In this document: in pieces, positions 8,226-10,738 of the stretch
How positions within the stretch are numbered: position 1 is the stretch's first letter
Layout: each line of letters starts with the position of its first letter
Assembly (NCBI GenBank): GCA_964514975.1
Contig: CAZESS010000014.1
Location: forward strand, 1 to 59,759
From: an uncultured Thermoplasmatales archaeon
Lineage (GTDB): Archaea > Thermoplasmatota > E2 > UBA202 > DSCA01
DNA: 59,759 nt
Reading direction: 5' to 3'
Position numbers and translations under genes: made by a program
The notes under the pieces: model-generated
The model's database searches: none
What the model was told of the DNA's origin: nothing
The model's input: the letters and a program-made list of their open reading frames with translations, nothing else

Positions 8226-9035
8226 GTGACACTGCTCGTTCGCTACGGGGAAATCGGGCTCAAGGGCCGTCCGATACGGCGGCAGTTCGAAAACATCCTG
8301 CTGGGAAACATCCACCGGGCACTCTCCTGGGCCGGCATCGAGCACCGCACGGACAGGCAGCGCGGGCGCCTGTATGTCGACGCCGATGACGAGGATGCAG
8401 CCCTCGCTGTCCTGCAGGATGTGTTCGGCATCGTGTCCGTCTCGCCGGCCATCGAAACATCGGCCGATCTGCCGGCCATTGCGAGCACCGCCGCGAGCTT
8501 CGCATCCCACATTCCCGCTGGAGAGAGTTTCGCTGTCAGGGCGACGCGGACGGGCAGCCATGATTTTACCAGCCAGGATGTCGGCGTTGCGGCGGGACAG
8601 GCCGTTGTCGATGCAACAGGCGCCCCGGTTGACCTGAACATCCCGGACGGGGAAATCGGCGTAGAGGTGCGAGACGATTACGCCTTTGTTTTCGACGTGT
8701 CCGTCGACGGGCCGGGCGGCCTTCCCTATGGGTCGCAGGGCTCCGTTGTCGCCGTCGTCCATGACGAGGACGACCTGCAGGCGGCCTGGCTCATGATGCG
8801 GCGCGGCTGCACCACCACCTTTGTCTGCCGGCCCGGAATGGAACAGGCGATACATGAGCAGTTACGATGGCGACCGGCCGACGTCGTAACGGAGAACGAC
8901 GACCTGCTCAGCCGGGCGGAAACGCTGGCAGTGCAGCGAAATGCGCAGGGGCTGGTCACCGGCGGGGAGCACTACGAAAAACGCCGCCTTCCCGTGTTTT
9001 ATCCATTGCTCGGCTACCGGGAGGTGACACGATAG
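8226..9035 (+). CDS. thiI: ThiI-like THUMP-domain protein with degenerate PP-loop domain
   Basis: GTG start; LVRYGEIGLKG..R..FE..L..NI, VFGI.S.S, SFAVR..R.G.H.FTS, VDL..PD, GPGGLP.GSQG, AAWLMM.RG, F.PL.G; the SGGxDS motif is absent. Confidence 0.8.
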   Translation: MTLLVRYGEIGLKGRPIRRQFENILLGNIHRALSWAGIEHRTDRQRGRLYVDADDEDAALAVLQDVFGIVSVSPAIETSADLPAIASTAASFASHIPAGESFAVRATRTGSHDFTSQDVGVAAGQAVVDATGAPVDLNIPDGEIGVEVRDDYAFVFDVSVDGPGGLPYGSQGSVVAVVHDEDDLQAAWLMMRRGCTTTFVCRPGMEQAIHEQLRWRPADVVTENDDLLSRAETLAVQRNAQGLVTGGEHYEKRRLPVFYPLLGYREVTR

Positions 9036-9952
9036 ACATCGTGGTATACGGGGCCGGGGCGCTCGGCTCCTTTGTGGGCGGCATGCTCTCGCAGCGGCAC
9101 GAGGTCACGCTGGTGGGGCGCCGCGAGCACATGACGGCCATCCGGCGCCATGGGCTCTGCATCTCCGGCGCGACGGAGCTGACCGTTCACCTCATGACCG
9201 CTGAAGCGCTGCCCGACCGAGACGTCGACCTCGTCGTCCTGACCGTCAAGGCCTATGACACCGCTGCGGCAGCCGAGAACATCGCCGCAACATGTGGCGC
9301 GCCGGTGCTCTCCCTGCAGAACGGGCTCGAGAACGAGTGGACATTGCAGGAAATGCTCGGCGAAGGGCGGGTCATCGGCGGGGTCACCTCCCACGGCGTC
9401 CGCTTCTTGGAACCCGGGCATGTCGAGCATACGGGCAATGGCGACACCGTCATCGGCGAGCTGGACGGCACCCTCAGCAGGCGGGTCGAAACCATCGCAG
9501 GCGCGTTAACCAGCTGTGATATCGCCACCACGCCAAGCGATGACATATGGCGGATGATATGGCGCAAGGCCGTCATCAACGCGGCCATCAACCCGCTGAC
9601 GGCGCTGCTCCGCTGCCGGAACGGTTTTCTGCTCGAAAACGAGGACACCCGACGGCTCATGCACGCCATCTGCAGGGAGGGCATCAGGGTCGCCGGCGCA
9701 TACGATGTCGATGTCAACGACATCGTGGAGCAAGCTGAACTGGTGGCACATCGCACCGCCCGCAACCATTCATCGATGCTGCAGTCCCTGGAGCATGAGC
9801 GGCCAACCGAGATAGACCACATCAACGGAGCCATCGCGGCACATGGAAAAAAACATGGCATTGCAGCGCCGGTCAACGAAACATTGACACGACTGGTCAG
9901 GGCGCTGGAAGAAAAGCCGCTGTTGCCCCCGGAGGGGCACCGGTCAGAGTAG
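9032..9952 (+). CDS. panE: 2-dehydropantoate 2-reductase (probable ATA start)
   Basis: IVVYGAGALG, VKAYD, LQNG, W.K..IN..INPLTAL, N.SSMLQ...R.TEID.ING. Confidence 0.92.
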   Translation: MDIVVYGAGALGSFVGGMLSQRHEVTLVGRREHMTAIRRHGLCISGATELTVHLMTAEALPDRDVDLVVLTVKAYDTAAAAENIAATCGAPVLSLQNGLENEWTLQEMLGEGRVIGGVTSHGVRFLEPGHVEHTGNGDTVIGELDGTLSRRVETIAGALTSCDIATTPSDDIWRMIWRKAVINAAINPLTALLRCRNGFLLENEDTRRLMHAICREGIRVAGAYDVDVNDIVEQAELVAHRTARNHSSMLQSLEHERPTEIDHINGAIAAHGKKHGIAAPVNETLTRLVRALEEKPLLPPEGHRSE

Positions 9953-9977
9953 AGCAGCAGAAGACCGATGGCGCGGC

Positions 9978-10108
9978 TGCTGTCCGGTATCCGGGTTGGC
10001 CTCACGTTCATCGATCGCGGAGGGACCCAGAGATACCGATTGTTATGTTGCTCTATGCTTGCACCCCCATTCATCGCGACGGCTCATGGAGGCCTTCGAA
10101 TAGAGCAC
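9978..10108 (-). ncRNA. Two-hairpin box H/ACA pseudouridylation guide RNA
   Basis: Hairpin 1: stem UGCUCUAU/AUAGAGCA, pocket UCGAAG/GCAAGC, upper stem GCCUCCAU/AUGGGGGU, GA..GAUGA K-loop, then ACA. Hairpin 2: stem UCGGUAUC/GAUACCGG, pocket, upper stem CCUC-CG/CG-U-GAGG, GA-UCGAU-GA K-loop, then ACA. TTTTAAAA TATA box just upstream. Confidence 0.85.
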
Positions 10109-10125
10109 ATGTCAAAGGAAAGCTC

Positions 10126-10133
10126 TTTTAAAA
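10126..10133 (-). promoter_or_regulatory. TATA box of the H/ACA RNA
   Basis: TTTTAAAA about 20 nt before hairpin 1, similar to the TTTAAA-to-ATG spacing at gene 37475. Confidence 0.55.
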
Positions 10134-10135
10134 CG

Positions 10136-10738
10136 TTATTGCTTTGTCGTGAGCAGCCCCGGCAGCTCTGCAATGGAGCCCACGGTCACGTCGGCCTCGA
10201 CCTGCACGCCAACCACGGTGCACCCGGCGGCTCTGCCCGCCCGGACGTCGCTGTCGGTATCGCCGACAAACACCGTCCAATCGGGGTCAACGCTGAGCCG
10301 CGTGCAGGCATGCAGCAGCATCTCCGGGTCTGGCTTGCCGTGCTCGACGTCATCCGGCGTCACAACCACGTCGAAAAAGGCGTCGATGTCGAAATGTGAC
10401 AGGATGCTGTCCACACACCGCTGCGGCGTGTTGGTCACCAGGGCCATCGGGTAGCCGTCGAGTTGCCCGAGCACCTCCCGGGTGGCGGGAAAAATCTCTA
10501 TGGCATCGGCGTAGTCGCCAAAAATGGTAAGGCAGAAGGCGCCAACCCTGTCGTCGATACCCAGACGGCGAAGGTTCTCGTACAGGTCATGTCCCCAGTA
10601 TGCATCGCGGAACTCCTGCTCGCTGATAGGCTCATGGCCGTAGCGGCGGAGCGCGGCGTTGAGCGCCCGCAGCCATGCATGAAAGGAGTCGACGAGCACG
10701 CCATCCATGTCGAACAGCAGCGCATGCGGTGAAAGCAT
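10136..10738 (-). CDS. HAD-family hydrolase (phosphoglycolate phosphatase-like)
   Basis: LFDMDGVLVDS, VTN, KPDP, VGD...DV.AG..AG. Confidence 0.88.
   Translation of the reverse strand: MLSPHALLFDMDGVLVDSFHAWLRALNAALRRYGHEPISEQEFRDAYWGHDLYENLRRLGIDDRVGAFCLTIFGDYADAIEIFPATREVLGQLDGYPMALVTNTPQRCVDSILSHFDIDAFFDVVVTPDDVEHGKPDPEMLLHACTRLSVDPDWTVFVGDTDSDVRAGRAAGCTVVGVQVEADVTVGSIAELPGLLTTKQ

Follow-up and report, generated by a model that had tools for sequence, protein, structure and literature searches.

A putative two-hairpin box H/ACA guide RNA of an uncultured Thermoplasmatales archaeon, related to stems I and II of the Pf7 family

The contig CAZESS010000014.1 of assembly GCA_964514975.1, from an uncultured Thermoplasmatales archaeon, was analysed over its full 59,759 nt, and this whole stretch is referred to below as the window. 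Within it, a gap of 183 nt separates two convergent genes, one encoding a PanE/ApbA-type protein (plus strand, ending at position 9952) and the other a HAD-type hydrolase (minus strand, ending at position 10136). The minus strand of this gap contains, from position 10106 to position 9981, two tandem H/ACA hairpins that together span ~126 nt. The locus probably encodes a two-hairpin box H/ACA guide small RNA (sRNA) with its own TATA-type promoter, which would guide modification of the uridines equivalent to positions 2496 and 2586 of E. coli 23S ribosomal RNA (rRNA) and would be the counterpart of stems I and II, without stem III, of the archaeal RNAs Pf7, Afu-4 and Pab40. The original prediction, made from the DNA letters, had listed two hairpins with stems, internal pockets, K-loops and ACA boxes, preceded by a TATA box; every one of these elements was found, on the minus strand (to which all coordinates of the RNA given below refer).

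A TATA-like box, UUUUAAAA (10133-10126), occupies positions -27 to -20, counted from the nucleotide with which hairpin 1 begins. Hairpin 1 itself (10106-10050) aligns to motif 1 of the Rfam family HgcG. Its lower stem consists of seven base pairs, GCUCUAU/AUAGAGC (10106-10100 with 10056-10050), and opens into an internal loop of 6+6 nt that is formed by the 5' pocket UCGAAG (10099-10094) and the 3' pocket GCAAGC (10062-10057). Above the pocket, an upper stem (10093-10086 with 10070-10063) whose closing pair is a G.U leads to the K-loop (10085-10071), in which the GA occupies 10085-10084 and the UGA 10073-10071. A single A separates the lower stem from the ACA box (10048-10046), and 14 nt lie between this box and the G.U that closes the upper stem; the coordinates thus bear out the first pocket as it had been predicted, UCGAAG/GCAAGC at 14 nt from the ACA. 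After a linker of 7 nt, hairpin 2 (10038-9985) aligns to motif 2 of HgcG. Its lower stem also has seven base pairs, CGGUAUC/GAUACCG (10038-10032 with 9991-9985), and its internal loop of 8+8 nt is composed of the 5' pocket UCUGGGUC (10031-10024) and the 3' pocket CCAACCCG (9999-9992). The upper stem (10023-10017 with 10007-10000) carries one bulged U and one C.A pair beside the G.A pairs, the K-loop occupies 10016-10008, and the ACA box (9983-9981) follows the lower stem after a single G. Both apical loops begin with GA and end with UGA, which is the K-loop arrangement.

The fold signal is strand-specific, as the minus strand folds with z = -2.0 (4 of 200 shuffles as stable) and the plus strand with z = -0.17 (84 of 200). 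A DNA search recovered homologues in 20 of 41 related genomes, and the alignment used for the covariation analysis comprises 20 homologues from the window's own order. Across the four stems, 94.6% of the cells in this alignment are paired and 16 of the 29 pairs show compensatory changes on both sides, values that 500 column shuffles never reached; when the 3' partners are shifted by 1-3 columns, only 33-43% of the cells remain paired. Changes on both sides are spread over all four helices: three among the seven pairs of helix 1 (in which 100% of the cells are paired), five among the seven of helix 2, four among the eight of helix 3 and four among the seven of helix 4. RNAalifold, run unaided, returned the same four stems. 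The covariation check across relatives that had been proposed with the original prediction has thereby been carried out, and together with the anatomy and the conservation it bears out the identification of a double-hairpin H/ACA guide. No variation was seen among the 20 homologues in the GA and UGA of the K-loops in both hairpins (predicted L7Ae sites), in the pocket cores or in the AC of the first ACA. Hairpin 1 ends in ACA in all 20, and the box of hairpin 2 reads ACA in 15, AAA in four and AUA in one, consistent with the ANA rule. Beside the G.A pairs, non-Watson-Crick pairs are frequent (in 8 and 6 of 19 distinct rows), a common feature of K-turns. Upstream of the hairpins, an A/T-rich 8-mer selected by script lies at -27/-29 to -20/-22 in 19 of the 20 homologues; in the remaining one the script chose another 8-mer, and inspection by eye finds GTTTTTAT at the same place.

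The geometry of the hairpins was compared with rules taken from PMC2377435 and PMC4652768. According to the latter, the canonical archaeal motif has a lower stem of 7-9 bp and a 3' ANA box, and its GA stem consists of 10 stacked layers counted from the pocket-closing pair to the second G.A pair; the spacing rule places the closing pair of the upper stem 14-15 nt from the ANA. Both hairpins combine a lower stem of 7 bp with one intervening nucleotide and an ACA. Hairpin 1 is of textbook form throughout, with eight pairs (including the closing G.U) and two G.A pairs giving a 10-layer GA stem, 14 nt to the ACA and a 3' guide of 6 nt. Two-sided complementarity of the pockets to rRNA, around an unpaired UN dinucleotide, was found for the RNA on the rRNA of relatives.

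The 23S sequences used for target assignment came from relatives of the organism, including two species of its genus. They contain both predicted target strings, G(C/U)UUGC-U-A-CUUCGA and UGGGUU-U-A-GACC, 90 nt apart; in the same genus the first reads GUUUGC-U-A-CUUCGA and the second UGGGUU-U-A-GACC. E. coli numbering was anchored on the sarcin-ricin loop, using the position that we take it to have in E. coli. Aligned to the E. coli 23S, the target uridines fall on 2496 (a C in E. coli) and 2586, in agreement with the positions first proposed. The 90-nt offset is shared by the pairs 2678-2588 of P. abyssi, 2586-2496 of E. coli and 2620-2530 of the same-genus 23S. That position 2586 corresponds to pseudouridine 2621 of Haloarcula, as had been stated in the original prediction, agrees with the equivalence given for H. 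marismortui by Grosjean et al. (2008, PMC2584109).

To rank the candidate sites, every U of the 16S, 23S and 5S rRNAs of three genomes was scored by how well its two flanks complement the guide strands at the proper spacing from the ACA. The predicted site of hairpin 1 ranks first among all U's in three of three genomes, with scores of 24-29 as compared to 15-21 for the runner-up, and its score was reached by 0, 1, 0 and 0 of 200 shuffled rRNAs. On the same-genus 23S, the guide of the window forms a 6+6 pairing that includes one G.U. In all seven genomes that have both genes, the 3' guide pairs at six of six positions and the 5' guide at 4-6 of 6, and guide and target have changed together, GCAAAC occurring with GUUUGC in one genome (G023) and GCAAGC with GCUUGC in two others (G009 and G037). 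The hairpin 1 target is thus well supported by computation. The pairing predicted for hairpin 2 comprises 6+4 bp, and its site ranks first in two of the three genomes and second in the same-genus one.

Tandem H/ACA hairpins on one RNA are a feature that the locus shares with Pf7 of P. furiosus, Pab40 of P. abyssi, Pho40 and Afu-4 of A. fulgidus (RF00064, HgcG). In a relaxed search the window matched HgcG with 16.4 bits (E = 0.012) and both pockets in register, and 8 of 20 relatives from the class matched at 18.5-42.6 bits, with a best E value of 3.9e-9. The only large difference is the absence of motif 3, the helix 69 guide, which is deleted (59-72 model positions) in every HgcG alignment shown, so that the RNA has two hairpins and not the three of the Pf7 family. 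When the HgcG model was run over the whole genome of the organism it found no match, and thus no separate stem III-like gene by this route; no dedicated search for a helix 69 guide was made. Further differences from the Pf7 family are the phylum-level lineage, a linker that is nearly missing in some families of the present group and the additional conserved 3' tail found in the window's family. Hairpin 1 resembles motif 1 of Pf7 and Pab40 in its 7-bp H2, its GA...AUGA K-loop, its pockets of the form xCGAxG/UGCxAx and its ACA. Its predicted target is also that of Pab40 motif 1, which directs formation of pseudouridine 2588 in P. abyssi 23S (equivalent to E. coli 2496), as verified by CMCT mapping and in vitro (Muller et al. 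2008, PMC2377435); the same source describes 2588 as conserved as a pseudouridine in eukaryotes. Likewise, the target predicted for hairpin 2 is the one assigned by rules to motif 2 of Afu-4, Pf7 and Pho40, the equivalent of P. abyssi 2678 and E. coli 2586, which is a pseudouridine (2621) in H. marismortui (PMC2377435). By prediction, the two hairpins have the targets of motif 1 and of motif 2 (the latter as assigned in Afu-4 and Pf7) of HgcG.

The simplest reading makes the RNA a homologue of Pf7/Afu-4 stems I and II. The suggestion that one RNA guiding both sites might be undescribed does not hold beyond this lineage, as in Pyrococcus and Archaeoglobus these sites have been assigned to Pf7 and Afu-4, on their stems I and II (PMC2377435, PMC2584109); for other archaea, both the kind of guide and the combination of the two sites in a single RNA have been described before. 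Among the papers searched, none was found to describe H/ACA guides in Thermoplasma-type archaea, the present RNA in Thermoplasmatota or the I+II module set. A second double-hairpin H/ACA sRNA, sR-h45 of Haloferax volcanii (hairpins HP1 and HP2), can be compared with the present RNA from its published description. Its HP1 is called a homologue of Pf7 stem II in PMC2584109, where haloarchaea are said to be without stem I, and its stem-loop 1 directs pseudouridine 2605 in vivo, as established by deletion and complementation (Majumder et al. 2020, PMC7075261). Position 2605 equals H. marismortui 2621 and E. coli 2586, and is therefore the site predicted for hairpin 2. The two RNAs differ in that sR-h45 carries modules II+III (I+II here), has a 56-nt linker and arranges its hairpins in another order.

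A likeness outside the archaea concerns hairpin 1, which gave a full-length match (22.8 bits, E = 0.006, below the gathering score of 50) to the trypanosomatid snoRNA TB11Cs5H3 (RF01544), whose 5' pocket, CGAAGGCC, is near-identical to that of hairpin 1. This likeness may reflect pairing to the same conserved rRNA sequence. The guide of pseudouridine 2865 in yeast 25S rRNA, which we take to be snR46, and TB11Cs5H3 are without a K-loop, unlike hairpin 1. Adding the offset of 369 from the table in PMC2584109 to E. coli 2496 gives yeast 2865; PMC7991803 makes no mention of snR46, 2865 or Pf7.

A covariance model (R1) built from the 20-homologue alignment was used to scan genomes of the class and the phylum, and every positive genome was found to contain exactly one full-length copy. 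In the class sample 102 of 151 genomes are positive, as are 63 of the 76 that are at least 90% complete; the window's own order accounts for 34 positives in 38 genomes, and one family is nearly negative (1 of 32). Among uncultured Thermoplasmatota sampled across the phylum, 59 of 151 genomes are positive. The genome of the organism also encodes proteins that such a guide would use: Cbf5 (323 aa, with DKCLD, TruB_N, TruB_C_2 and PUA domains), Nop10 and L7Ae.

From these data we infer that the RNA is transcribed, is assembled into a ribonucleoprotein particle (RNP) and gives rise to pseudouridines, as follows. An sRNA of ~126 nt would be transcribed from its own TATA-type promoter; the five sequencing runs on record that contain the stretch are DNA metagenomes, none being listed as RNA. 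L7Ae would bind at the K-loop of each hairpin, and Cbf5-Nop10 at the lower stem and ACA box of each. The open pocket would then pair with pre-23S rRNA on either side of an unpaired U-A dinucleotide, and Cbf5 would isomerise that U to pseudouridine. Hairpin 1 is predicted to select the U at the E. coli-equivalent position 2496 and hairpin 2 to select U2586, both located in the central loop region of domain V, at the peptidyl-transferase centre.

A number of observations weigh against this assignment. At gathering thresholds, Rfam reports no family at the locus. The window falls far below the HgcG gathering score of 77 bits, and the whole set of scores (16-43 bits) lies beneath it, which we attribute to the missing third hairpin; because both the score and the third motif are wanting, we file the RNA as a two-hairpin relative of HgcG and not as a member in the sense of Rfam. 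Gar1 (PF04410) gave no Pfam match in the genome even at E = 10, a cut-off at which four of four archaeal control genomes matched, plus three bacteria; at E <= 0.001 it was detected in three of the four archaeal controls and missed in Sulfolobus. The assembly, which is 98.9% complete by markers, contains no 23S of its own by searches with the target patterns, conserved 23S motifs and the domain V of relatives, and both targets are therefore read from the rRNA of relatives. The proposed comparison of the two patterns with the organism's own 23S was accordingly run and found no such gene to compare, the patterns being present in the 23S of relatives. Four matches to target pattern 1 with one mismatch in the genome (contigs C6, C8, C14 and C21) were set aside, as simple arithmetic puts their number at chance level. 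In the 3' duplex of hairpin 1, the pairing with same-genus 23S includes a G.U, and in the same-genus genome G003 it includes two.

The remaining points against concern hairpin 2. Its GA stem has seven pairs (one of them the C.A) and one bulge, which with two G.A pairs makes nine layers, a tenth being gained only by stacking of the C.C above the pocket. Its ACA is separated by 16 nt from the last Watson-Crick pair, by 15 nt from the C.C layer and by 14 nt from the first pair between guide and target; the Watson-Crick spacing is off the ideal value, as is the GA stem, under the rules of PMC4652768. The second pocket as originally predicted, GGUC/AACCCG at 14 nt, thus stands if the two top C's of the 3' pocket are unpaired, the distance becoming 16 nt if it is counted from the last Watson-Crick pair. 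The pocket is also able to close on itself through GGG/CCC. The score of the target site is not exceptional, as it was reached by 7, 7, 34 and 38 of 200 shuffled rRNAs, and in G003 position 69 of the 16S outscores the 23S site (27 vs 25). Whichever register is chosen, the 5' guide leaves a mismatch in the sister family. Finally, the homologous motif 2 leaves 2678 unmodified in P. abyssi itself, because the K-turn of Pab40 motif 2 carries a point mutation (PMC2377435), so that this very target has been lost once by a single change.

These features would fit a genuine H/ACA sRNA of which only hairpin 1 is productive at its predicted site, hairpin 2 being inactive, directed to another uridine (such as 16S 69 in this genus) or occupied with assembly or stability of the RNP. 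We regard this alternative, the one that survives best, as unlikely. All 20 homologues share the cores of the hairpin 2 pocket, AACCC and GGG, without change, and these cores are recognisable in most of the class-level homologues shown. Each of the 11 pieces of 23S that span the 23S site has it unchanged, whereas the 16S site belongs to a variable helix and ranks first in G003 only. The first guide pair of hairpin 2 is 14 nt from the ACA, exactly as in hairpin 1, and the irregular top of its pocket has a precedent in the validated stem-loop 1 of sR-h45, which likewise has two unpaired nucleotides atop the 3' pocket (PMC7075261; see also PMC2584109). Because its site is not statistically unique, the target of hairpin 2 rests mainly on homology, together with the conservation of the pocket, the invariant 23S site and the equal spacing to the ACA. 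With these considerations, a guide in which both hairpins would act on domain V remains our preferred reading.

A feature that bears on a further alternative is a putative 3' tail of the RNA, GCAGCCGCGCCAUCGGUCUUCUGCUGCU (28 nt, 9980-9953), which lies between the ACA of hairpin 2 and the stop codon of the convergent panE-like gene. Two blocks in it, GCCG..AUCGGUYU and CUGCUGC, are kept in 10 of 10 loci of the window's family and are absent from the sister family. The block AUCGGUCU is complementary to GAGACCGAUAG in domain I of the 23S (~474-484), and CUGCUGC is complementary to GCAGCAG in the helix 91 loop (~2562, between both targets), a 7-mer that also occurs at 16S position 329. These complementarities are short and mostly within the range of shuffles, which reached them in 280, 12, 81 and 92 of 300 trials. 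Two other readings of the tail were rejected: as a vestige of stem III or a conserved hairpin, it has an outer stem whose pairing is confined to the window's genus, and it is not followed by an ANA box; as coding sequence of panE, it holds in L002-L004 only. The tail might act as an accessory tether that keeps the RNP attached to the nascent 23S and lets the two hairpins work during a single encounter, an idea that we consider improbable. We know of no such add-on to an archaeal H/ACA RNA, although no dedicated search was made. Safer than the tether is the view that the Pf7 family is modular across archaea, Thermococcales and Archaeoglobus having I+II+III, haloarchaea II+III and Thermoplasmatota I+II.

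The same complementarities could be taken to mean that the RNA serves, in addition to guiding or in place of it, as a chaperone for the folding of domain V that holds two segments 90 nt apart and, in the window's family, makes extra contacts through its tail. The two targets do fall in a single 90-nt stretch, conserved segments of rRNA have complementarity to the tail blocks, and chaperone roles of archaeal sRNPs are discussed in PMC3608112. However, shuffled sequences match the tail contacts as often as given above and the sister family has no tail; a covariation test between tail and rRNA is impossible because the rRNA partners are invariant. We think a chaperone role very improbable as compared to the guide function. 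That there is no RNA gene at all, the hairpins being terminator or 3' untranslated elements between the convergent panE-like and HAD genes, or else coding sequence (mechanical open reading frames (ORFs) at 9968-10399 on the plus strand and 9253-10074 on the minus strand cover the region, and in the sister family the panE stop codon falls inside hairpin 2), is scarcely credible, as the stems covary around conserved single-stranded pockets and K-loop residues, a TATA-like box keeps a fixed distance from hairpin 1, loop indels of 4-6 nt break the reading frame, the RNA is kept in lineages without the panE-like neighbourhood, and no T-run follows the hairpins in the window.

Read as a guide RNA, the locus provides a checked annotation for an RNA gene that Rfam thresholds miss across a large and mostly uncultured archaeal phylum, and predicts two pseudouridines at the peptidyl-transferase centre of the ribosomes of these organisms. 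It also suggests that the multi-hairpin guide of Pf7 type is older and more modular than the few cultured examples had indicated. Its value is for annotation, and it involves no new kind of biology.

The conserved neighbour of the sRNA is the PanE/ApbA ketopantoate-reductase-like gene (9062-9952, plus strand; Pfam ApbA and ApbA_C), which is convergent with it in 20 of 20 loci from the order. Among panE loci of public genomes, 25 of 80 carry the sRNA, and all 25 score at least 97 bits, as is typical of the window's own order. For the panE-like gene, the mechanical ORF begins 65 codons (8867-9061) upstream of the part that matches ApbA and the relatives, and the true start is probably near 9062. 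On the other side, the minus strand upstream of the sRNA encodes L7Ae (11955-11581; Pfam Ribosomal_L7Ae, 102.5 bits), the first gene of the upstream operon in this genus, followed by S28e, L24e, ndk and the HAD-type hydrolase (10753-10136). The position downstream of the L7Ae operon, to which the original prediction had drawn attention, is thus correct for the window; as a conserved context it gives way to the panE-like gene, since the L7Ae-S28e-L24e-ndk operon lies upstream in only 6 of the 20 order loci (two genera), the flanks available for the other 14 spanning 98 to ~1500 nt. We therefore rejected linkage to the L7Ae operon as a general rule and regard it as local.

In seven loci of the sister family (L008, L010, L015, L016, L018, L019 and L020), the panE-like ORF ends inside hairpin 2. 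The overlap amounts to ~20 nt in L015, L016, L018, L019 and L020, where the protein has the C-terminus ...ESVRHLG, and to ~50 nt in L008 and L010, so that one stretch of DNA there serves both the C-terminus of the protein and the stem and pocket of the guide.

Two observations were made beside the main analysis. The context of the sarcin-ricin loop reads GGUACGAGAGGAAC instead of AGUACGAGAGGAAC in nine of nine pieces from the order that cover it (L023-L031), the class members L021 and L022 having the A form; because the order has this variant first base, a scan of the relatives for the sarcin-ricin motif matched in 2 of 41 genomes. In the organism's own genome (66 contigs), contigs C6, C34, C41-C43 and others have a G+C content of 0.35-0.46 as compared to ~0.58-0.62 for the bulk, and may represent foreign or mis-binned DNA, or islands.

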